Below, piece after piece: positions 24,667 to 61,972 of a DNA stretch of 64,000 nucleotides. The translations under genes were made by a program, and so were the position numbers. The stretch is taken from positions 5,750-69,749 of the forward strand of contig JAGUZQ010000032.1 in assembly GCA_020060765.1 (NCBI GenBank). The letters run 5' to 3'. The stretch comes from Planctomycetota bacterium. Its GTDB lineage: Bacteria; Planctomycetota; SZUA-567. Numbering within the stretch: position 1 is the first letter of the stretch; every line of letters begins with the position of its first letter. Under the pieces are notes generated by a model. It worked only from the letters and a program-made list of their open reading frames with translations, ran no database searches and was not told the DNA's origin.

Positions 24667-26103
24667 ATGTACACGCTGCACGAGGAAACCAAGGAAATCA
24701 CCGATATCATTCTCGCCGCCCGCGACAAGGCGCGCGAGGAAGTGGGCAAGTCAGAACCGGAGGCGCAGTTCGCCAAGCCCATGACCTGGCCGGTGCAGTG
24801 CACCGTCGGCCCGGGGCTGGAAGGCGCTATCGCCTGCGAAAGCAAGGTCGGCTACGTCAACGGCTCCAAGGGCATGCTGGTCTATCGAGGATATGACATC
24901 TTCGACCTCTGCGCCTACTCCACTTTTGAGGAGGTCTCGTACCTGCTGGTGCACGGCGAGTTGCCCAACACTTCCCAACTGCGCGAATTTAACTGCAGCC
25001 TCGCCCGTTTCCGCTCCCTGCCCATGACTTTGCGGCGGCTGGGAGGTTTTCCGGTCGAGAACATCAATACCATGGCGGCCTTGCGTATCGGCACGATGAT
25101 GATGCGTCAGCGCCTGTCGTTCCGCGACAGCCAGAGCGCGCGCCCCGACCCCAACACCGCCATCAGCGCCGACGAGGACTCCATCCCGATGGAGACCAAG
25201 CCCATGGGCGAGCCGCACGCCATTTACGAATTCAAAAAGAAACAACTCGAGCGCCCCAAGGACGCGCGCGAAACCCAGGACGAATCCGAAAGCGTGCAGT
25301 CCTGTATGCACCTTATCTCCGGCATGGCCACCATCGCCGCGGGCGTTGCGCGGATGCGCGAGGAAAAAATGCCTATCGAGCCGGATACCGAATTAAGCCA
25401 CGCCGCCAACCTGCTGTACATGATGACCGGTCGTAAGCCCACACCGATCGAGGAAAGGGTAATGGATGTGGCGCTGATCCTCCACGCCGATCACGGCATG
25501 AACGCCAGCACCTTTGCTTCGATGGTGGTGGCCTCGACGCTGTCGGACATTTACTTCTCCGTCGGCGCGGGCATTGCCGCCTTGAACGGCCCGCTGCACG
25601 GCGGCGCCAACGAACAGGTACTGCGCCTCCTGCAGGAAATCGGGCCTGCCGCCAAAGTCAGCTCCTGGTTCGAGCAGGCAACGCGGGAGAAACGCAGGAT
25701 CATGGGCTTCGGGCACCGGGTATACAAGGCTTACGACCCCCGCGCGCGCATTCTCGGGCCGCTGGCGAAATTCCTCATCCAGGAAAAGAAGGAAATGCGC
25801 CCGTTATACAACACCGCGCGCGAACTGGAAAAGAAGGTCGTCACCACCCTTGGCGCGGAGAAGAAGATTTTCCCCAACGTCGATTTCTATTCGGGGATCG
25901 TCTACGCCGCCATGGGCATTGAGCCGGAACTGTTTACCCCGATTTTCGCCGTCAGCCGCGTGTCTGGCTGGTGCGCGCGCATTCTCGAATATCTGGACAA
26001 CAACCGGATTTTCCGCCCGCGCGCGATGTATATCGGCGAGTTCGACAAGGAATACGTCCCCATCGGCAAGCGGGGCGCGAAAAAGAACGCGCGGAAAAAA
26101 TAG
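24667..26103 (+). CDS. gltA: citrate synthase
   Basis: LILHADHGMNAST, GPLHGGAN, GFGHRVYKAYDPR, NVDFYSG. 478 aa, with extra N-terminal and internal segments. Confidence 0.9.
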   Translation: MYTLHEETKEITDIILAARDKAREEVGKSEPEAQFAKPMTWPVQCTVGPGLEGAIACESKVGYVNGSKGMLVYRGYDIFDLCAYSTFEEVSYLLVHGELPNTSQLREFNCSLARFRSLPMTLRRLGGFPVENINTMAALRIGTMMMRQRLSFRDSQSARPDPNTAISADEDSIPMETKPMGEPHAIYEFKKKQLERPKDARETQDESESVQSCMHLISGMATIAAGVARMREEKMPIEPDTELSHAANLLYMMTGRKPTPIEERVMDVALILHADHGMNASTFASMVVASTLSDIYFSVGAGIAALNGPLHGGANEQVLRLLQEIGPAAKVSSWFEQATREKRRIMGFGHRVYKAYDPRARILGPLAKFLIQEKKEMRPLYNTARELEKKVVTTLGAEKKIFPNVDFYSGIVYAAMGIEPELFTPIFAVSRVSGWCARILEYLDNNRIFRPRAMYIGEFDKEYVPIGKRGAKKNARKK

Positions 26104-26112
26104 GAGGGCATA

Positions 26113-26475
26113 GTGGCGAAGATACTGTTAGCCGACGATGACAGACGTATCTCTGATCTGCTGAAAAGAATTTTCCAGACCCAGGAAGTCATTCTGGTGC
26201 GAACATGGACCGAGGAATTGGCTGAACTGGAAAAGGATAAATTCGACTTGGTGGTGACAGATATCGTCATGCCTGGCTACAAGGACGTGCAGCAGAACGG
26301 CGGAGTTAAGGAAGTGCTGGTGAAGTACAATACTCCGGTGATCTTCATCTCCGGCTATGCGGAAAAGGAACTGAAGGATTTGCCAGACACCATGCGTTTT
26401 CTGAAAAAGCCTTTCAGCGTCAACCTCTTCCGCTCGTATGTCCGCAAGCTTCTGCTGACCGACGATATCTGCTGA
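26113..26475 (+). CDS. single-domain response regulator (CheY-like receiver)
   Basis: GTG after AGGAGG. ILLADDD, acceptor LVVTDIVMPG, and KKPF. Confidence 0.8.
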   Translation: MAKILLADDDRRISDLLKRIFQTQEVILVRTWTEELAELEKDKFDLVVTDIVMPGYKDVQQNGGVKEVLVKYNTPVIFISGYAEKELKDLPDTMRFLKKPFSVNLFRSYVRKLLLTDDIC

Positions 26476-26498
26476 AGATGCTTATCTCTATTTACGTT

Positions 26499-26525
26499 AA
26501 AAGCCCCTCTTGCGAGGGGCTTTTT
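26499..26525. terminator. bidirectional rho-independent terminator
   Basis: AAAGCCCCTC-ttgc-GAGGGGCTTT plus a T-run, between the convergent response regulator and ftsK. Confidence 0.7.
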
Positions 26526-26541
26526 GATTTATTCGAAAGAA

Positions 26542-29076
26542 CTATGCCTCATCGTCCCACGGCACATCCTCGCGCTCTTTTTCGTCATCGCGTAAACCTG
26601 CCATACCGCCGTCGTCGTCATCGTCGAACATCAGGCTGGACTGACCGCCGCAGAACTTGGCGCAGAATTCCTCCATCGTCATCATGATCTCGCGCGCCTT
26701 GCCTTCGCGGAAAGGCCCCAGCAGCCCCGCCGCCGCGAGCTGGTCGATAATCCGGCTGGCGCGGCCGTAACCGACGCCGAATTTGCGCTGCAACAGCGAG
26801 ACCGAGCCGCGCCCGCTTTCGATAATCGCCATTCCCGCCTCGCCGAACAGTTCGTCGAAATCCTTGATATCGCCGCCCGCGCCGCCGATAACCGGCCCGT
26901 CCAGTTCCTGATGATATTCCGGCGCCATCTGCGCTTTGACGAAATCCACTACCCGGAATAATTCTTCGTCGGAGACAAACACGCCTTGCGCGCGAGTCAA
27001 CTTGCCCACACCCGGCGGCAGGAACAGCATGTCGCCCGCACCCAGCAAGGTCTCCGCGCCGTTCTGGTCGAGAATGGTGCGCGAGTCTACCCGGCTGGCC
27101 ACCTGAAACGCGATGCGGCAAGGCATGTTCGCTTTAATGAGACCAGTGATAACGTCCACCGACGGACGCTGGGTCGCCAGCACCACGTGAATGCCGACCG
27201 CACGGCTCTTGGCCGCCAGGCGCGTGATATGCTGCTCCACGTCCTTGCCCGCCACCAGCATCAGGTCGGCCAGTTCGTCAATGACGATCACGATGTAGGG
27301 CAGGCTCTTGGGGAACAGCTCCAACTCCTCCTTGCCGTAATTGCCTGCCAGCCGCTTTTCGATTTCCGCCTCGCCCAACGCGTTGAACTTGACGATGTTG
27401 TTGACGCTGACCATGGAAAGCTGTTCGTAACGCTCGTCCATTTTCTGGCACGCCCATTCGAGCACGCCAACCGCTTTTTTCATATCGGTAATGACGGGGC
27501 TTAAGAGATGCGGGATTTCCTTGAACCGCGACAGCTCCACCACCTTCGGGTCGATCATGAGCAGTTTCGCTTCGCTGGGCTTGCAGCACATCATCACCGA
27601 CAGGATCAGTGAATTGATGCAAACCGACTTGCCGCTGCCGGTCGCGCCCGCGATCAGCATGTGCGGCATCTTGGCCAGATCGGCTATGATCGGCGTGCCG
27701 GAAACATCCTTGCCTAAACAAACCGGAATCTGTTGCAGGCGATTATTGCGCTTGACCGCTTCAACAACTTCACGCAGCGACACCACGTTTTTCTCTATAT
27801 TCGGTATCTCGATACCGATAGTGTCTTTACCGGGGATAGGCGCAATAATGCGGACGTTGGCCGCTTTCAAGGCCATGGAAATATTGTCGCCCAGGGAAAT
27901 GACCTTGCTCAGGCGGATTCCCGGTGCCAGCATCATTTCGAACAAAGTTACTCGCGGGCCGCACTCGATCTGCACTACCTTGCCTTCGATCTTGAATTCG
28001 GCCAGCGTCTTTTCCAGAATCTTCGCTCGTTTTTCCAGACTCGCCGCGCCCTCGCCCAGGCCTTCCTGCGCCTCATCCAGCAGATACATCGGCGGCAACT
28101 GATAGTCGCGCTCCGCATCCACGCTGTTGGCCACGACCTTGTCGATCTTCTCGGGACGCTCCGCTCTCCGCACCGGAGGTTTCTTTTCCACCACCGGTAT
28201 CGGTTCGGAAACAGGCTCTGGCGTCGGCTCGCCGTAGGGGACGAATTCCGCGTTTTCGCCTTTTTCGGTTTCAGGCACTTCCGGGACAACCGGCTCCGGT
28301 TTTTCCTCCACCACCGCTGCCTCGACTTCGAACGCTTCAGATATTTCCTCTTCCCGCTCCTCGCGGATTTTTTCCCGCACCGGACGCACGCTCTCCCGTT
28401 CCTTGGGGGGATTAAGCAAAGCCACTGCGCGGCTGGCGCTGCCCGCCACTACCGATACGACTTTCGGTTTTACATGTTCCGCCGCCGCGCTGGTAGCAGA
28501 GACGAAAATTCCGCCCACCGTTTTCAACCCATCGCCAACTATGCGTCCCCATTCAAACAACGCCTCTCCCACCATCAGCACCCCGCCAAACAGCAGCAAC
28601 CCGCCCGCGATAATCGCCAGCCCGAAGTTGCCCAGATACAGCCGCGCCGGAGGACTGACGATGTAAGAAAGCAGTCCGCAGGATTCGACCGCGCTGGCGC
28701 CGAAAACCGAATCCACCAGCAACGGCAACGCGATCAGCGCCACTACTCCACCCAACACCTGCGGCCAGGCGCCGAAAAACCGGTTGTTGCGGATAATAAA
28801 TATTCCCCACGCACACAGCAGCAGCGACAACGCATAGGAAGCGACACCACCCAGCGTCAGCCGCACGCCAAACGCAGCCCACGCGCCCAACAAGCCGGTC
28901 GCGCAGTCGCTCGCCGTTGTCGCCGGATCGAGAGTAGTGTCGGCAGTGAAAAACGAAATCCCCAGGAACATGCCCAGGCCGATAATGAACAGCCCGGTAA
29001 AAAAGGTGAGCATCACGACAAACCCGCTGGGTCTGGCCGGAATCTCGATTTCCACCGGTACTTTTCTACGCGCCAT
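26542..29076 (-). CDS. ftsK: DNA translocase FtsK
   Basis: N-terminal TM segments, a P/E-rich linker, Walker A GATGSGKS, Walker B IVIVIDELADL and a gamma winged-helix (SVSLLQRKFGVGYGRASRIIDQL). Confidence 0.92.
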   Translation of the reverse strand: MARRKVPVEIEIPARPSGFVVMLTFFTGLFIIGLGMFLGISFFTADTTLDPATTASDCATGLLGAWAAFGVRLTLGGVASYALSLLLCAWGIFIIRNNRFFGAWPQVLGGVVALIALPLLVDSVFGASAVESCGLLSYIVSPPARLYLGNFGLAIIAGGLLLFGGVLMVGEALFEWGRIVGDGLKTVGGIFVSATSAAAEHVKPKVVSVVAGSASRAVALLNPPKERESVRPVREKIREEREEEISEAFEVEAAVVEEKPEPVVPEVPETEKGENAEFVPYGEPTPEPVSEPIPVVEKKPPVRRAERPEKIDKVVANSVDAERDYQLPPMYLLDEAQEGLGEGAASLEKRAKILEKTLAEFKIEGKVVQIECGPRVTLFEMMLAPGIRLSKVISLGDNISMALKAANVRIIAPIPGKDTIGIEIPNIEKNVVSLREVVEAVKRNNRLQQIPVCLGKDVSGTPIIADLAKMPHMLIAGATGSGKSVCINSLILSVMMCCKPSEAKLLMIDPKVVELSRFKEIPHLLSPVITDMKKAVGVLEWACQKMDERYEQLSMVSVNNIVKFNALGEAEIEKRLAGNYGKEELELFPKSLPYIVIVIDELADLMLVAGKDVEQHITRLAAKSRAVGIHVVLATQRPSVDVITGLIKANMPCRIAFQVASRVDSRTILDQNGAETLLGAGDMLFLPPGVGKLTRAQGVFVSDEELFRVVDFVKAQMAPEYHQELDGPVIGGAGGDIKDFDELFGEAGMAIIESGRGSVSLLQRKFGVGYGRASRIIDQLAAAGLLGPFREGKAREIMMTMEEFCAKFCGGQSSLMFDDDDDGGMAGLRDDEKEREDVPWDDEA

Positions 29077-30320: not shown

Positions 30321-30684
30321 GCCGTCCTTTCAATAAAAGTTGGCGAAAACGGAAATAGCATCCTGTTCCCCCTATCCTGGAACAGAAAAGCCTGTACTAT
30401 TTTATCGACAAAATCAGGGGGAAATCTAAGTCAAACCGGCTGAATTCGGTTTTTCGTTATGTAAACTCCGGCAGGGAAAGAGCTATGCGAATTGTGTTAG
30501 ATATAGGTTAGCTATGAGGCAGGGATTTAAGAAATTTTCATTTAATGTATATTTTTTTATTGTGATTTTCTTCTTTGATCATTATCATACTGCTGTGAAT
30601 ACTTTCATCAATATACAGATTGTGTAATCCCATCTCCGGGACTTTCGTAAGTATTTGTTTTTTAGGCATATTACAGGTTTTGGC

Positions 30685-30993
30685 ATGGTAGACGTATTTG
30701 ACATAGACGGCAATATTATCCGGATGCTGTTGCGCCTTGATATTCGCGATGAGACGCAGATCGACGCTTTCCGGGAAGCGATCAGCGAAGCCGGCAAGGA
30801 AAAAGGCGAGGTCGTGATTGACTTCAGCCACACCCGGGTGATGTCAAGCGTGATCCTGATGCTGACTTATATCGCGGTGGAAAAAGCGCGAGAAATCGGG
30901 GTAGTGATCCGAATCGTAGCATCAATGAAACACCACCGCGCCCTCGTCGCCAGCGGCATGCCCGAATATATCGACCTGCAACTCTGCGGGTGA
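30685..30993 (+). CDS. STAS-domain protein (anti-sigma-factor-antagonist-like)
   Basis: EVVIDFSHTRVMSSVILMLTYIAVEKAREIGVVIRIV..ALVASGM resembles the SpoIIAA/STAS layout. The start is uncertain (ORF opens at 30655). Confidence 0.5.
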   Translation: MVDVFDIDGNIIRMLLRLDIRDETQIDAFREAISEAGKEKGEVVIDFSHTRVMSSVILMLTYIAVEKAREIGVVIRIVASMKHHRALVASGMPEYIDLQLCG

Positions 30994-30997
30994 ATCA

Positions 30998-31558
30998 CTA
31001 CGTTGTTGCCCCGATAATTCTCCGCAACCCTTGAATGAAGATATCAAAGCTTTTCGATCGCTGGTTATCGAGATCAAGATAAGGGGAAATTCGGCGGGAA
31101 CCATCAATCTTCTGATAATCAGGCACCATTTTTCGCAGATAACCGGAAGGGCAAGTAATCGAATCCGGCGCGCGACATGGATTCTTCATTTGCTGTCGCG
31201 CAAGGTTATTCAAGTTCAAGCCTTTTTCCACTGCCGCAAGGTCGGCGAGATACCAACTCTCCAACTCCCTGCAGACAATGCGTACTAAACTGGCGTCTTT
31301 TCCCGCTTCGCCGCATTTCTTTTTCAACGCAGCCTTGATCTTTTTGCAATCCCCCGCATCCTGATCCCGCATCACCACGAACAAGGCATCTGGCGCATTG
31401 TATCCTCGCATGCGCCGCACCATCTGTCTTTCCAAATCCTGCTTCCCTTCAAAAACAAGATACCGGGGTGTAAAATTATCAGGGAGCAAACGTGGCAATA
31501 CTCCTTTGAGCATTTCCGCGGCGGACGGTTCTTCGAGCAGGAAAACTATTTCCCTCAT
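30998..31558 (-). CDS. DUF4276-like protein (TOPRIM-like E...DxD arrangement)
   Basis: ATGA overlap with the upstream ATPase. MREIVFLLEEPS, FEGK, MRDQDAGD, CRELESWYLAD. 186 aa. Family assignment is from memory of the pattern. Confidence 0.7.
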   Translation of the reverse strand: MREIVFLLEEPSAAEMLKGVLPRLLPDNFTPRYLVFEGKQDLERQMVRRMRGYNAPDALFVVMRDQDAGDCKKIKAALKKKCGEAGKDASLVRIVCRELESWYLADLAAVEKGLNLNNLARQQMKNPCRAPDSITCPSGYLRKMVPDYQKIDGSRRISPYLDLDNQRSKSFDIFIQGLRRIIGATT

Positions 31559-32742
31559 CGCGGATCGGCTCCTTCAAAGAATCCCTGTTTCCAGAGATAT
31601 CCCATCTGGTCGCTTTCCGCCATGTAGTTGGCTATTTGCGCATTGTCCTGCGCCCGTTTTATTACGGTATAACCGTCTTGCTTGACCAGCCAATAAACTT
31701 CTTCCAATTGCATCGCATTCAGAAAATCGGGAGAATGGGTCGAGACAAAAACCTGCCCCCCGCGATTTGCATATTCCCTGAACTCCTCCGCCAGTTCCCA
31801 TAGAAGCTTGGGATAAAGCTGGTTTTCCGGCTCTTCCACGCATAACAGCGGATGAGTAGTAGGATCGTATAGCAGCGTCAGATAGGCAAACATCTTGATC
31901 GTTCCGTCGGAAACATGTCTGGCAAGAAAAGAGTCTTTGAAAGCGCCGTCCTGAAACCTAAGCAGTATACGACCTTCGTCCGTCGTATTGGCTTCCACGC
32001 GGGAAATTCCCGGCACCCGCCGAGCCAGTTTTTCAATGATCCTGTTAAATACGTCACGGTGACGCTTGTACAGAAACTCCGTCACTAAAGCCAGATTCTC
32101 TCCTTCGCGGGATAGGTGTTCGGCATATCCCACCTCCTGCTCGGGTCGCGCTTTTTGAATATGGAAATCAGATACATGCCAGTTTTCTATCAACTCCCCC
32201 AACGCCATTACAGCCGGGAATTTCTTGAACTGCGCCAAGCCCTTAATCGCCAGTACGTCAGAGGATTTAAGCGTTTGTTCCTCCCGTTTGAGTTCTGATT
32301 CGTCCTCCACCTTATCCGGCTCGTTGGTGACCGCCGTACCCTTTCCCTTTGCAAAGTCGAGGAAGTGCCAAGGCTGTCCCTTGCTGCCCCGGCGGTATCT
32401 AAGAATTTCACGTTCAACAATAGGATTGCCATTTTCCTCGTTTATAGCCAGAAAATATGTTATAAGCGGTGAAGTGTTTTTTTCACGAAATTTAAGCTCG
32501 ATTTCGATAGAACCTTCGGCATTCCGGCTGCGTACTTCCTGGAAGCCCCGACCGCCGCCGAGTTTGGTCAGGGCAACATGGACATTTTCGGTTAAGGCGT
32601 CTTTGAGAAAACCGAAAACACTGAATAGAGTGGATTTCCCCGTACCATTCGCGCCAACCATGACACACATGCGCGGAATCTCGCGCATTTCGGCATCCTT
32701 GAACGCCTTGAAATTTTTCAGCCTGATATACTCGATATTCAT
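31555..32742 (-). CDS. ABC-type AAA ATPase (AAA_21/AAA_15-like, SMC/RecF-like head)
   Basis: ATG at 32742 after GGGAG. Walker A GANGTGKST, signature-like VSDGTIKMF, Walker B LLCVEEPENQLYP, H-loop VSTHSP. Confidence 0.85.
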   Translation of the reverse strand: MNIEYIRLKNFKAFKDAEMREIPRMCVMVGANGTGKSTLFSVFGFLKDALTENVHVALTKLGGGRGFQEVRSRNAEGSIEIELKFREKNTSPLITYFLAINEENGNPIVEREILRYRRGSKGQPWHFLDFAKGKGTAVTNEPDKVEDESELKREEQTLKSSDVLAIKGLAQFKKFPAVMALGELIENWHVSDFHIQKARPEQEVGYAEHLSREGENLALVTEFLYKRHRDVFNRIIEKLARRVPGISRVEANTTDEGRILLRFQDGAFKDSFLARHVSDGTIKMFAYLTLLYDPTTHPLLCVEEPENQLYPKLLWELAEEFREYANRGGQVFVSTHSPDFLNAMQLEEVYWLVKQDGYTVIKRAQDNAQIANYMAESDQMGYLWKQGFFEGADPR

Positions 32743-32816
32743 TGCAAAACTCCCGGACGTCAACCCTTGTCGTCAAGCGAAACCGTGAAGAGCGTATTTT
32801 TTCTGTTCCGTGAGCT

Positions 32817-32845
32817 ATTGTAGACCTAACCGTTTTCGATTGCAA
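32817..32845 (-). promoter_or_regulatory. sigma70-like promoter of the ATPase/DUF4276 cassette
   Basis: On the minus strand: TTGCAA (32845-32840), 17-nt spacer, TACAAT (32822-32817), about 75 nt upstream of the ATG. Confidence 0.5.
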
Positions 32846-32898
32846 GAATAAGAGGGTTGTAAGAATGTCTATCGCCAAGGCAATCGCATTTCAGCACT

Positions 32899-32935
32899 AA
32901 AAAAAAGCCCTCTCCCCGGTGAAGAGAAGAGGGCT
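32899..32935 (-). terminator. rho-independent terminator of the SGNH hydrolase gene
   Basis: On the minus strand: AGCCCTCT-loop-AGAGGGCT followed by T8. Confidence 0.6.
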
Positions 32936-33655: not shown

Positions 33656-34711
33656 TCATGGAAGAATCAACATTGCATCGCCGTAGGAATAGAAACGGTA
33701 TTTTTCCGTGACCGCTTCTTTATAGGCTTCGACAATCCTCTCCCTTCCCGCCAGCGCCGACACCAGCGCCAGCAGGCTGGAACGCGGCAAGTGGAAATTA
33801 GTCAACAAGCCGTCTATCGCCCTGAAACGATAACCCGGAGTAATAAAGCAATCCGTCCAGCCCCGACCAGAATGAACATAACCTGTCTCGTCAGTCACGC
33901 TTTCCAGTGCACGGGTGGAGGTAGTGCCGACGGTTATCACACGTCGGCCTTCCTGTTTGGCGGCGTTGACTGCGGCGGCGGTTTCTTCCGGCACGATATA
34001 ATATTCTTCGTCCATCCGGTGTTCGCTGAGGCGTTCGGTCTTGATCGGTCGGAACGTGCCTGGCCCCACGTGCAGGGTAAGATAAGCGCAAGCGACGCCG
34101 CGCGCGGCGAGAGCGGCGTCGATCTTCGGAGTAAAATGCAGACCCGCCGTCGGCGCTGCTACCGCTCCGTTTTCGCTGGCGTAAATGGTCTGGTAGCGGT
34201 CGCGGTCGGAAGTATCTGGCTTGTCCTCACCGCGCGAGATATACGGCGGCAGCGGCACCTCGCCCAGGCTTTCCAACTGTTCCATAAATCCGCCCGCGTC
34301 CATTGTACCAAACGAAACCGTGACCTTTCCCTCCCCCAAACGCTCCTCCACCGTGGCGACGAGTCGGCCTTCTCCGAAAAAAATCTGCTTGCCCGGTTTA
34401 AGATGACTGGTCGGTCGCGCCAGGCACAGCCAGCGCTCGTCGCCCTCGAGGCGATGAATCAATAAAAGTTCCGTCTTGCCGCCGCCCGGTCTTTTCCCCC
34501 GCAGGCGCGCGGGAATAACACGTGTATTGTTGCGCACCAGCAGATCACCGGGGCAAAGAATTTCGGGGAGTTCGCGGAAAGAACGATGCGCCGATTTTCC
34601 GTCGCCCGCCAACAGCAGCAGGCGGGACTCGTCTCGCTTCCCGGCGGGACGCTGGGCGATAAGTTCCGGCGGCAAATCATAATCGTAAAGGGAAAGGAGG
34701 TCGTCAGACAT
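33656..34711 (-). CDS. queA: S-adenosylmethionine:tRNA ribosyltransferase-isomerase
   Basis: YDYDLPPELIAQRPA, TAGLHFT, VGTTSTRALES. Confidence 0.92.
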   Translation of the reverse strand: MSDDLLSLYDYDLPPELIAQRPAGKRDESRLLLLAGDGKSAHRSFRELPEILCPGDLLVRNNTRVIPARLRGKRPGGGKTELLLIHRLEGDERWLCLARPTSHLKPGKQIFFGEGRLVATVEERLGEGKVTVSFGTMDAGGFMEQLESLGEVPLPPYISRGEDKPDTSDRDRYQTIYASENGAVAAPTAGLHFTPKIDAALAARGVACAYLTLHVGPGTFRPIKTERLSEHRMDEEYYIVPEETAAAVNAAKQEGRRVITVGTTSTRALESVTDETGYVHSGRGWTDCFITPGYRFRAIDGLLTNFHLPRSSLLALVSALAGRERIVEAYKEAVTEKYRFYSYGDAMLILP

Positions 34712-47237: not shown

Positions 47238-48671
47238 TCATTTAAAAATCACGGCAGGGCCGACCGGCGCAAGCCCTGTCGTGATGTAACTGTTGTGCAT
47301 CACATCTTTTTCCCGATACGCAAATTTCCAGATGCGAGTCACGAGTTGTTCCCGGATTTCGTTGTATTCGGGAAGACGCGCCAGGTTTTTCATTTCGTGC
47401 GGATCGTTTTCCAAATCGTACAGTTCGTCCCAGTCAAACCCGTTGTAAGTGTATTTCCATTTTTTCGTCGTAATCGACCGCTGCATGGCATACAATTCCA
47501 CGCCGTTACACTGGGTGAAAATCTCTTCGCGCCAGTCTTGGGGTTTCCCTTCGCGGAAAAATGGCGCAAAGCTTTTTCCCGTCAATTCCTCTTTCGGTGT
47601 GACGCCTGCCAAATCCGCGAAAGTCGGCCCAAAATCAGCCAGCGATATAAACGCGTTTTCCCGGCGGCCGGGATTAGCAATCCCCTGCGGCCAGCGCATT
47701 ACCGCTGGTACGTGGTAAGCTCCCCTGAAACACGGAATCCCCTTGGCAAACAAGCCGTGGTCACCGCAATAATCGCCGTGGTCTGCGGTGTAAATAACCA
47801 GCGTGTTGTCGGCCTGCCCGGTTTCCTCCAGCCCTTGCAATATCTGTCCGAACTGGTAATCAAGATAAGTGCAATAGGCGCGAAAGTGACGAATGGATTC
47901 GCGCACCTCCCTTTCGCTCAACTGGTCGAAAATCTGCCGCCGCATCCGTTGATAGAGATGGGGCTTGTCTTCCAGATCGTCGGCGTAATTTTCCGGCAGT
48001 TCTATGTCGTCGATATCGTACATGTCGAGAAATTGTTGCGGGACGAAATACGGGTCATGCGGGCCGATCAAACCGACATAAAGACACCACGGCTTGTCCG
48101 CGTTTTTCAATTGCCGGAGCGCTTCCAGTCCGCCCTTGACCGTTCGCACGTCGTGATGTTCCGGAGAAGGCTCCATTACACCGTAAGCGGTGTAATCTCC
48201 GTACCCCGGTCGCAGAATCATGCCTTCTCCGCGTTCGGTAACCACTGGACGTTTGGCCAATTCCTGATAGTTGTCCCAACGTCGGGGGTAATATTCACAG
48301 GCAGAGACAAAATTTTCAATACATCCCCTGTCCTTTGGAGTTTCGGTCATCGACACATGCCATTTCCCCGACCAATGTTGTTCATAACCGCCTTCGCGCA
48401 ACCAGTCGTGCCAGGTTTCTATGCCTTCGTTCAAGCCGATGCTCAATGCCTGTTCGTTGCTTATGTTGTTCCAGACCCCGTGACGGGAAGGATACAACCC
48501 GGTCATGAAAGTGGCGCGCGAGGGGCAGCAGTGCGGAGTAGGGCAGAAAGCTTCGGTAAAGGTGATTCCTTCTTTCGCCAATTTGTCGATATTGGGCGTA
48601 AGGGTGTTTTCTCCGACAGTGTCGCCGCGCTGGTGATCGGTCATGAAAATCAGAATATTCGGGCGTGTCAT
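47238..48671 (-). CDS. sulfatase (formylglycine-dependent), no signal peptide
   Basis: NILIFMTDHQRGD and CCPSRATFMTG (C-x-P-x-R). Confidence 0.9.
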   Translation of the reverse strand: MTRPNILIFMTDHQRGDTVGENTLTPNIDKLAKEGITFTEAFCPTPHCCPSRATFMTGLYPSRHGVWNNISNEQALSIGLNEGIETWHDWLREGGYEQHWSGKWHVSMTETPKDRGCIENFVSACEYYPRRWDNYQELAKRPVVTERGEGMILRPGYGDYTAYGVMEPSPEHHDVRTVKGGLEALRQLKNADKPWCLYVGLIGPHDPYFVPQQFLDMYDIDDIELPENYADDLEDKPHLYQRMRRQIFDQLSEREVRESIRHFRAYCTYLDYQFGQILQGLEETGQADNTLVIYTADHGDYCGDHGLFAKGIPCFRGAYHVPAVMRWPQGIANPGRRENAFISLADFGPTFADLAGVTPKEELTGKSFAPFFREGKPQDWREEIFTQCNGVELYAMQRSITTKKWKYTYNGFDWDELYDLENDPHEMKNLARLPEYNEIREQLVTRIWKFAYREKDVMHNSYITTGLAPVGPAVIFK

Positions 48672-48775
48672 TTGTCAGCTCCTTAATCCGGCTTGTATAT
48701 TTCGTTATCTTGCTTATACTTTATCCTATAAAATGCTTATATCAATTCGATATATTGCGGAAAGGTTTAGATATC

Positions 48776-49660
48776 TTGCTGTTTGGAAGCCGAAAACTCC
48801 CCCTCGCCTTTTCTCCGCCTCTGACTGATGGGTCGCATGAAGCCATTAGCGATATCCTGCCGCTTCAGTCTGGTCATCAGCTTGAATACGGCTGGCGACG
48901 AAAGATAGACTGGGATAATTCAGGGCGGACGCGCCGCGGTTACAAAAATTATGTCCTGTTCCAGTATACCTTAAAAGGCGGGGTGAACTTCCGGTTTGAA
49001 GGGCGTGAGACCATGGTACATGCGGGACAGGCTTTATTTTTGCCGCTGCCGCACGAGAGCCGCTACTGGCTGCCGGAAGACGGGGAGTGGGAATGGCTTT
49101 GGGTTGCGTTTACTGGCGATACCGCGTTAAAAATTTCTCGGGAGATAGTCAGTCACGCGGGACCTGTTCTCGACATTGGCAGATCTGAATTACCGATCCG
49201 TCTTTTGCAGCAGATTTTTGCCGAAGCCTGCGACGGAGAATCCCCTTCGCCATTTCACACTTCCGCGCTGCTTTACCGTTTCCTGATGGAACTTTCGCGG
49301 ATGTTTCTTGACCGGCAACCTGCTTATCCCCCGGCGGTTTCCCGCGCGCTGGCGGAGTTTCGCCAACGTCCGGAAGACCCTGATTGGAATCTTGACACTC
49401 TCGCCCAGGCGGCGGGATTATCCAAGTATCATTTCGCCCGGCTTTTCCGGCAGACAGTCGGACTGACACCGGGAAATTATCTGACCGAAAGCCGCATGAA
49501 GCGCGCGATGGAACTGCTTTCCTTTACGCAATTGCCGATCAAACAGATAGCAGCGCTGTCGGGATTCAGAGGCCACACCTATTTCTGCGCCGCTTTCAAA
49601 AAACATTACGGGTATTCTCCCGGTGCCTGCCGATACACAACAAATATCAGTTCGAAATAA
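48776..49660 (+). CDS. AraC-family transcriptional regulator
   Basis: C-terminal HTH pair (LDTLAQAAGLSKYHFARLF..IKQIAALSGFRGHTYFCAAFKKHYGYSPG). The start is uncertain: the ORF opens at 48665, which would overlap the divergent sulfatase gene, and the first plausible in-frame start is a TTG at 48776. Confidence 0.75.
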   Translation: MLFGSRKLPLAFSPPLTDGSHEAISDILPLQSGHQLEYGWRRKIDWDNSGRTRRGYKNYVLFQYTLKGGVNFRFEGRETMVHAGQALFLPLPHESRYWLPEDGEWEWLWVAFTGDTALKISREIVSHAGPVLDIGRSELPIRLLQQIFAEACDGESPSPFHTSALLYRFLMELSRMFLDRQPAYPPAVSRALAEFRQRPEDPDWNLDTLAQAAGLSKYHFARLFRQTVGLTPGNYLTESRMKRAMELLSFTQLPIKQIAALSGFRGHTYFCAAFKKHYGYSPGACRYTTNISSK

Positions 49661-61358: not shown

Positions 61359-61595
61359 ATGAAAGCATCAATCTTGGATTTGCGCCGGAAAATGGGAGAT
61401 GTGCTTCGCTCCCTGGAGCGGGGGGAGCGAGTAACTATTCTTCATAGAGGCAAGGAAAAAGGAATTCTGATTCCTGCCACAGAAAAGAAATCTGTTTCTG
61501 TGCGGTCTCATGCGGCTTTTGGGATGTGGGCTGAACGAGATGATCTTTCCGATGTGGCTGCATATGTGCGATCATTGCGCCAAAGGCGTTTCTAA
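61359..61595 (+). CDS. type II antitoxin (Phd/YefM-like)
   Basis: GGAG RBS. MKASILDLRRKMGDVLRSLERGERVTILHRGKEKGILIP is typical of a Phd/YefM N-terminus. TAATG overlap with the toxin gene. Confidence 0.75.
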   Translation: MKASILDLRRKMGDVLRSLERGERVTILHRGKEKGILIPATEKKSVSVRSHAAFGMWAERDDLSDVAAYVRSLRQRRF

Positions 61596-61972
61596 TGCTG
61601 TTCGATACTGACATTCTTATCTGGTGCCTGCGCGGCAACGAAAATGCGGCGAAAGTTATCAATGATTTTGATACTCGCGCGCTTTCTATTGTAACTTATA
61701 TGGAACTTCTGCAAGGTGCGCGAGATAAGAGGGAAATGAAAACTCTCCGTGGTTTTCTTTCCGAATTGGGTTTTACTGTCTTTCCCTTGACAGAGAATAT
61801 CAGTCACCGCGCCTCCATTTATCTGGAAGAATATTGTCTTAAAATTGATTTGGGTATTGCCGACGCGCTGATCGCTGCCACGGCTGTTGAAAACGGGCTG
61901 ATCCTTTTTACCGGCAACGAAAAGCATTATAAACTGATAAATGACCTGGAAGTTAAAATCTTCAAACCGTGA
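61595..61972 (+). CDS. vapC: PIN-domain toxin VapC
   Basis: MLFDTDILIW (first acidic residue), later E and D (ADALIAATA) and a C-terminal N/D. 125 aa. Confidence 0.85.
   Translation: MLFDTDILIWCLRGNENAAKVINDFDTRALSIVTYMELLQGARDKREMKTLRGFLSELGFTVFPLTENISHRASIYLEEYCLKIDLGIADALIAATAVENGLILFTGNEKHYKLINDLEVKIFKP

Follow-up and report, generated by a model that had tools for sequence, protein, structure and literature searches.

HEC-01 (Hma-embedded candidate 01; PADLOC-DB v2) is an 'ABC ATPase plus TOPRIM' gene pair taken from Hma-embedded cassettes, in which an OLD-like metal site has been noted (Payne et al. 2024 preprint, bioRxiv 10.1101/2024.01.29.577857). Related pairings have been described elsewhere: the PARIS paper places DUF4276 among the domains annotated on a tree of ATPase-containing defence proteins and counts MADS3-4 as a further ABC-ATPase plus TOPRIM system (PMC11464382), while the MADS protein Mad4 has been called a DUF4276 homologue and DUF4276 itself has been placed formally in the TOPRIM superfamily (PMC12065111). 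Here we analyse a two-gene cassette, an ABC-type ATPase gene followed by a DUF4276 gene, in a stretch of 64,000 nt from a Planctomycetota bacterium (contig JAGUZQ010000032.1, positions 5,750 to 69,749 of the forward strand; hereafter the window). The cassette belongs, as an ordinary member, to HEC-01, a candidate anti-phage system that has already been catalogued. What is new is a 99%-identical strain that lacks exactly this HEC-01 cassette.

The two genes occupy 31555..32742 (395 aa from ATG) and 30998..31558 (186 aa) on the minus strand. The mechanical first start of the ATPase open reading frame (ORF) is a TTG at 32763; we place the start at ATG 32742 because homologues are 395 aa long and begin at the equivalent methionine. 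The features of the cassette, in window coordinates, are as follows.

30994..32900, no strand assigned: strain-variable segment of 1907 nt, comprising a leader with promoter, the ATPase gene and the DUF4276 gene (blastn against metagenome contig L083)
32905..32936, minus strand: intrinsic-terminator-like hairpin of the upstream GDSL-lipase gene, a 13-bp stem followed by a T-run (terminator scan)
32817..32845, minus strand: promoter-like TTGCAA-17-TACAAT, lying within the strain-variable segment (9 of 12 positions agree in the consensus scan; a consensus match only)
32750..32754, minus strand: Shine-Dalgarno-like GGGAG, 7 nt upstream of ATG 32742 (direct reading)
31555..32742, minus strand: HEC-01 ABC-type ATPase gene, 395 aa plus stop (Pfam, PADLOC, AlphaFold, Foldseek)
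32629-32655, minus strand: Walker A motif with K36, in the ATPase gene
31888-31914, minus strand: signature-like SDGT motif, in the ATPase gene
31825-31848, minus strand: Walker B motif with catalytic Glu (E303/E304), in the ATPase gene
31729-31746, minus strand: H-loop, in the ATPase gene
31555..31558, minus strand: ATGA in which the stop codon of the ATPase gene overlaps the start codon of the DUF4276 gene (direct sequence reading)
30998..31558, minus strand: DUF4276 (TOPRIM-like) gene, 186 aa plus stop (Pfam, PADLOC, AlphaFold, Foldseek)
31529-31534, minus strand: catalytic-type Glu pair E9/E10, in the DUF4276 gene
31358-31366, minus strand: DxD motif (D65, D67), in the DUF4276 gene

A preliminary description of the locus, made before any database search, had reported the two overlapping minus-strand ORFs, the ATGA at 31555-31558 and the GGGAG ribosome-binding site, all of which direct reading confirmed; every motif it quoted was likewise found in the two proteins. 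The ATGA overlap suggests that the two genes are probably translationally coupled, and they are probably co-transcribed from the leader that the cassette carries. The same description had placed a near-consensus promoter just after the terminator of the neighbouring gene. Both elements were located by scan, but 'near-consensus' is too strong for the promoter, because only 9 of 12 positions match and promoter-like sites in the region are not clearly enriched (7 found versus 3.4 ± 2.0 in shuffles). Among the related loci compared, we found no conservation of the upstream leader or promoter.

Both proteins match PADLOC HEC-01 models over their full length, and the pair is therefore already catalogued. 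The ATPase matched PDLC04144 (5.7e-208, positions 1-395 of 395) and PDLC04182 (7.5e-130), and its scores against the other PADLOC defence families (AriA, AbiLi, mad3, NsnB and GajA) were far lower or partial. The 186-aa protein matched PDLC04143 (1e-78, positions 1-185 of 190) and PDLC04202 (1.8e-34). A PADLOC scan of the window, a check that the preliminary description had proposed, assigned the pair to HEC-01, which settles whether the pair had been catalogued, a point on which that description could not decide. That description had also expected a different, uncharacterised effector domain, a claim that does not hold, as DUF4276 was already assigned to the TOPRIM superfamily (PMC12065111) and the pair catalogued as HEC-01. 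We observed that the labels of the two best-matching HEC-01 models in PADLOC are swapped: the ATPase is directed to PDLC04144 'HEC-01B' and the DUF4276 protein to PDLC04143 'HEC-01A', whereas in the remaining HEC-01 models and in the paper A is the ATPase and B the TOPRIM protein. The swapped labels could mislead automated annotation.

The ATPase contains GANGTGKST at residues 30-38, VSDGTIKMF at 277-285, LLCVEEPENQLYP at 299-311 and VSTHSP at 333-338. The Walker A lysine that had been pointed out is present, although it is K36 when numbered from the ATG and K43 only if counted from the TTG. Residues K36, E303, E304 and H336 are invariant in 63 intact pairs (defined below), and S37 is either S or T. 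The domain names AAA_21, AAA_15 and DUF4276, which the preliminary description had given, agree with Pfam, where all three matches lie above the Pfam cut-offs (AAA_21 at 4.2e-31 and AAA_15 at 1.3e-20 for the ATPase). The AlphaFold model of the ATPase has a pLDDT score (from the predicted local distance difference test) of 82.5, and with it Foldseek returned Rad50 and SMC heads together with the OLD, GajA, PtuA and retron-Eco8 ATPases at E values of 1e-9 to 1e-11. Rad50 and SMC heads were the best matches, with the defence ATPases almost as good. These matches identify an ABC-type ATPase, not an AAA+ protein, and, together with Pfam, they bear out the ABC-type assignment made earlier. NCBIfam gave weak Rad50 and RecF matches, and the AlphaFold model lacks a long coiled coil of the kind seen in Rad50 or SMC.

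The 186-aa protein (Pfam DUF4276, 1.2e-15) carries MREIVFLLEEPS, FEGK at 36-39, RDQDAGD at 64-70 and CRELESWYLAD at 96-106. Its AlphaFold model (pLDDT 95.6) has the secondary structure E2-8, H11-23, E29-35, H39-51, E59-65, H71-84 and E91-95, where E denotes a strand and H a helix. By this model the protein is a single-domain TOPRIM of three-layer alpha/beta fold, with alternating strands and helices, a Glu after strand 1 and the DxD after strand 3. The only PDB match below 1e-3 in Foldseek was the C-terminal TOPRIM region of the B. pseudomallei OLD protein (6nk8; E 8.6e-4, template-modelling (TM) score 0.54-0.58), and the best viral structural match was an RloB-like protein. The earlier TOPRIM-like reading is thus upheld by Pfam and by the fold match to 6nk8. 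A PDB sequence search with the DUF4276 profile gave no match even at E = 10, so the TOPRIM relationship is visible by fold comparison only. E9, D65, D67, E98 and D106 are invariant in all 63 pairs, and the E9/E10 and D65xD67 sites as a whole are invariant or nearly so. The DUF4276 profile recovered 2012 clusters at 50% identity, and each of the top 150 is a small stand-alone protein. A 317-aa 'DUF4276' protein (P0002) was rejected as an artefact of chimeric contigs. Contigs L086 (JGI 3300007354) and L087 (JGI 3300007351), which had suggested variant C-termini, were discarded as assembly chimeras: both are short metagenome contigs in which 100%-identical pieces of the cassette are joined to unrelated sequence, and L086 starts with an Illumina adapter.

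A 98%-identical QueA led to two 3-kb metagenome contigs, L083 and L084, from a strain without the cassette. By blastn, L083 1-2913 corresponds to window positions 35813-32901 at 99.1% identity, and L083 2940-3071 to window positions 30993-30862 at 100%. Between them, 26 nt (gaattcagtagaattatttgaggaaa; L083 2914-2939) stand in for window positions 30994-32900 and share no similarity with the cassette ends. The left junction falls inside the T-run (32899-32906) of the GDSL-lipase terminator, whose hairpin is common to the empty-site allele, with six T residues there versus eight in the window. The right junction coincides exactly with the end, at the stop codon, of a 112-aa convergent ORF. The cassette is a horizontally acquired insertion between the GDSL-lipase terminator and the stop codon of this small ORF. 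As the 1907-nt difference is exactly the leader, the ATPase gene and the DUF4276 gene, the cassette is autonomous, dispensable and horizontally moving. Around it we found no direct or inverted repeats, target-site duplication, recombinase gene, tRNA gene or Rfam family.

Judged by base and codon usage, the cassette is also foreign to the neighbouring genes. Its GC content is 0.489 (30994-32900) versus 0.557 for the window, and the GC content at third codon positions (GC3) of its two genes is 0.535 and 0.543 versus 0.63-0.81 in adjacent genes, values in line with the AT-richness that the preliminary description had remarked on. The pair had further been called a self-contained unit, and this proved correct on two counts, since the pair is conserved across loci and a near-identical strain lacks exactly the promoter and both genes. 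The convergent 112-aa ORF itself (30655-30993, plus strand) was considered as a third component and rejected: none of the 80 related loci described below has a homologue of it, and it is a host gene outside the system because the empty-site strain has it. Its only domain signal was a sub-threshold STAS-domain match (17.6 bits versus a cut-off of 22.6).

A scan of GTDB species genomes yielded more than 575 relatives, of which the best 80 (L001-L080) were analysed. These are 71-83% identical and come from Planctomycetota, cyanobacteria, Desulfobacterota, Chlorobi, Proteobacteria, Elusimicrobia and others, with a patchy phyletic distribution and neighbourhoods that vary between loci. Conservation of the pair was counted in the 74 of the 80 loci whose ATPase gene leaves room downstream. 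At least 72 of these 74 have a DUF4276 gene immediately after it, mostly with the identical 4-nt overlap or one of 1 nt, so that homologous pairs are conserved as pairs. In three of these loci (L008, L014 and L048) the DUF4276 gene has decayed to C-terminal remnants while the ATPase gene next to it still aligns from end to end, and in L066 there is no partner. A decayed or absent partner beside a full-length ATPase gene in these four loci argues against the ATPase as an essential antidote.

For co-evolution we used 63 intact pairs, namely 62 of L001-L080 and the window pair. The identity matrices of the two proteins correlate with r = 0.85, a value reached by none of 2000 Mantel permutations; the ATPase and the DUF4276 protein have co-evolved as a unit. 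Mean identity across the 63 pairs is 74.6% for the ATPase and 55.5% for its partner. Four-fold synonymous sites have reached saturation, with an identity of 0.29, and the GC3 of the genes tracks host GC with r = 0.83. The high identity therefore reflects long-term purifying selection and not a recent sweep.

In seven of the 80 loci the pair sits inside an Hma system, with HmaB on one side and HmaC or HmaA on the other, and among 124 flanking proteins from 31 loci we counted five HmaB and three HmaA matches. A 56%-identical pair (L081) lies on plasmid pSYSM of Synechocystis sp. PCC 6803 at 25994-27735 (SGL_RS00110/SGL_RS00115), where its neighbours include RelE/HigA and other toxin-antitoxin genes, HNH endonuclease genes and a Dnd-associated methyltransferase gene. 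The phage genomes searched contained only distant relatives of the ATPase, at 32% identity or less.

Taken together, these results show the pair to be a stand-alone copy of HEC-01, carried as a strain-variable accessory cassette, and we consider it probable, by analogy with characterised systems, that it serves as an anti-phage module in which an ATPase sensor gates a nuclease. In such a scheme an ATPase oligomer would hold or gate the TOPRIM nuclease, as in PARIS AriA/AriB, OLD and Gabija; on sensing an infection cue, the ATPase would release or activate the nuclease through ATP binding or hydrolysis. The nuclease would then cleave nucleic acid in a metal-dependent manner, using E9/E10, D65xD67 and E98/E100, and this cleavage would stop phage replication or the infected cell. 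The substrate may be DNA, which the OLD-like fold of the DUF4276 model favours, with RNA, for example tRNA as in PARIS, as the other option. A role in defence accords with the seven Hma-embedded relatives, with the surroundings of the pSYSM copy and with a 2026 cold-seep genome study, which reports that E. coli B carrying one HEC-01 was protected from T4, T5 or T7, at least one of the three (PMC12881386).

Several observations weigh against this reading. The HEC-01 representative of Payne et al., assayed in E. coli, protected against none of the phage panel (10.1101/2024.01.29.577857), and the positive report is thin on detail and lacks mutant controls (PMC12881386). Apart from the pair itself, the PADLOC scan found no other defence gene in the 64-kb window: the remaining matches, to SspH, mad8, mad3 and AriA, are FtsK and two ABC-transporter ATPases, so there is no defence island here. 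Most of the related loci, too, have non-defence and often housekeeping neighbours. From the sequence comparison, such conservation of the ATPase (approximately 75% identity across phyla) is unusual in an immune sensor and a poor fit to a sensor engaged in an arms race. Finally, the gating mechanism would apply to HEC-01 pairs by analogy only.

Three other functions were weighed against the defence reading. The pair could be an accessory module of methylation-based systems, like Mad3-Mad4 and the Hma-embedded copies, with the stand-alone copy inactive or orphaned. The seven relatives found between Hma genes, the inclusion of MADS3-4 among ABC-ATPase plus TOPRIM systems (PMC11464382), the description of Mad4 as a DUF4276 homologue (PMC12065111) and the inactivity of the isolated HEC-01 of Payne et al. 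all point this way. Set against them, most relatives with long flanks have unrelated neighbours, as the five HmaB and three HmaA matches among 124 flanking proteins attest; the catalytic residues are invariant though most relatives stand alone; the MAD3 and MAD4 cut-offs are missed widely (111 versus 420 and 14 versus 160 bits); no methylase or helicase lies near the cassette in the window; and HEC-01 alone was protective in another study (PMC12881386). We therefore regard this explanation as rather improbable. Somewhat less probable again is a selfish addiction module of the toxin-antitoxin (TA) kind, in which a nuclease toxin restrained by the ATPase would be kept by post-segregational killing. 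Closely related strains live without the cassette, there is no small DNA-binding antitoxin, and L008, L014 and L048 have lost the nuclease first, the reverse of the order expected for an antidote ATPase; Hma embedding and the one positive phage assay point instead to immunity. This holds even though the Pfam text for AAA_21 reads 'putative AbiEii toxin, Type IV TA system', the pSYSM copy adjoins toxin-antitoxin genes, RelE/HigA among them, near-identical strains differ by gain or loss of the cassette with no recombinase gene present, and one phage test (Payne et al.) was negative.

The least probable of the three, in our estimation, is a cellular accessory to DNA repair or recombination, acting on host DNA damage with RecF/RecR- or Rad50-like logic. 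RecR, like the DUF4276 protein, has a TOPRIM domain. Rad50 and SMC heads are the best Foldseek matches of the ATPase, the weak NCBIfam matches are to Rad50 and RecF, purifying selection across phyla is very strong, and the neighbours in the window are housekeeping genes. A repair accessory would, however, fit poorly with a cassette that is dispensable and strain-variable, has a foreign codon composition, is patchily distributed among neighbourhoods that differ by locus and occurs inside Hma defence operons. The ATPase moreover lacks the long coiled coil of Rad50 and SMC, and OLD, GajA, PtuA and retron Eco8 match it almost as well as Rad50 does.

A more novel reading starts from the conservation of the ATPase. 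The HEC-01 subfamily could differ from arms-race sensors such as AriA in sensing an invariant cue, either a nucleic-acid structure or the failure of a host process, and its 186-aa effector could have a substrate or activation mode unseen in OLD, Gabija and PARIS. We hold this to be unlikely, if a little less so than the methylation-linked role. Its basis is the approximately 75% identity of the ATPase across at least 10 phyla, with saturated synonymous sites and host-adapted GC3; yet strains that are 99% identical have gained or lost the cassette with no recombinase gene present.

As a discovery the locus carries little weight, the system type, domain assignments and defence candidacy all being published and searchable. 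Its value is practical, as HEC-01 has no published mechanism and the published activity tests disagree. The natural presence/absence pair defines a minimal mobile unit of a 158-nt leader and two genes, and the highly conserved subfamily would be a convenient subject for a decisive functional test of HEC-01, as one copy lies on pSYSM of Synechocystis PCC 6803, a tractable model cyanobacterium.

In the window, the cassette is flanked by genes for citrate synthase, FtsK, UppP/BacA and dUTPase on one side and for a GDSL lipase, QueA, biotin carboxylase and the biotin carboxyl carrier protein (BCCP) on the other. The QueA gene (33656-34711) has, beyond the 98%-identical sister strain, a closest match of only 65% identity among 5.8 billion proteins, and its named matches at 55-60% identity are from Planctomycetota; such distant homologues indicate that the host lineage is deep-branching, poorly sampled and probably Planctomycetota-like. 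The non-coding region 30321-30654, which separates the dUTPase gene from the 112-aa ORF, is markedly AT-rich (GC approximately 0.40) and contains a terminator-like hairpin at 30433-30452 on the plus strand. Two further ORFs, at 48665-49660 (plus strand) and 61592-61927 (minus strand), have a GC3 of 0.54, like the cassette, where most window genes have 0.6-0.8; these may be foreign.

Among known systems, AbiL (AbiLi and AbiLii) and the Menshen variants whose NsnC has a DUF4276 or RloB domain share with the window pair the combination of an ABC ATPase and a small effector of the TOPRIM superfamily, and AbiLi and NsnB match the ATPase at 4.7e-25 and 1.4e-23, respectively. However, AbiLi is matched over only part of its profile (positions 50-265 of 326) and no AbiLii model matches the partner, while Menshen is a three-gene system whose other genes are absent here. 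The OLD family, comprising the class 1 P2 Old protein, the B. pseudomallei and T. scotoductus OLD proteins, GajA and the retron Eco8 effector, has the same ATPase class and a TOPRIM domain with a Glu and DxD metal site; 6nk8 matches the DUF4276 model, and the matches of the ATPase model include 6p74, GajA and retron Eco8. OLD and GajA carry ATPase and TOPRIM together in a single fused polypeptide, whereas here the two are separate ORFs. Gabija differs further in that no GajB helicase lies nearby and the GajA match to the window ATPase is partial (1.6e-15), and retron Eco8 in its reverse transcriptase and non-coding RNA, neither of which occurs here. MADS Mad3-Mad4 likewise pairs an AAA_15/21 ATPase with a DUF4276 protein (PMC11464382, PMC12065111), and against the PADLOC mad3 model the ATPase scores 3.4e-24. 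Unlike in MADS, the NCBIfam equivalog cut-offs are missed widely (111 versus 420 bits for MAD3, 14.4 versus 160 bits for MAD4) and no other MADS genes are present in the window, where the other mad3 and mad8 matches are FtsK and ABC-transporter ATPases.

PARIS is also a two-gene system, with an AAA_15/21 ABC ATPase (AriA) and a separate TOPRIM effector (AriB), and its logic (PMC11464382), in which an ATPase scaffold senses a trigger and releases a nuclease, would be the best model for the pair. The partner here is nevertheless DUF4276 and not a DUF4435-type AriB, with no AriB or DUF4435 match in PADLOC or Pfam, and its 186 aa amount to roughly half of the 35 kDa quoted for AriB (PMC11464382). 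No AriA or AriB structure was among the top Foldseek matches, and the tRNA target of AriB cannot be assumed here. The likeness to HEC-01 is the closest. Although the window copy stands alone among housekeeping genes and is embedded in no system, close relatives of the pair are embedded in Hma systems. As in HEC-01, an ABC ATPase gene is followed directly, with no change of strand, by the gene of a small TOPRIM (DUF4276) protein, with full-length model matches to both, and the published structural conclusion, a TOPRIM domain like that of B. pseudomallei OLD, is reproduced by the model of the window protein.

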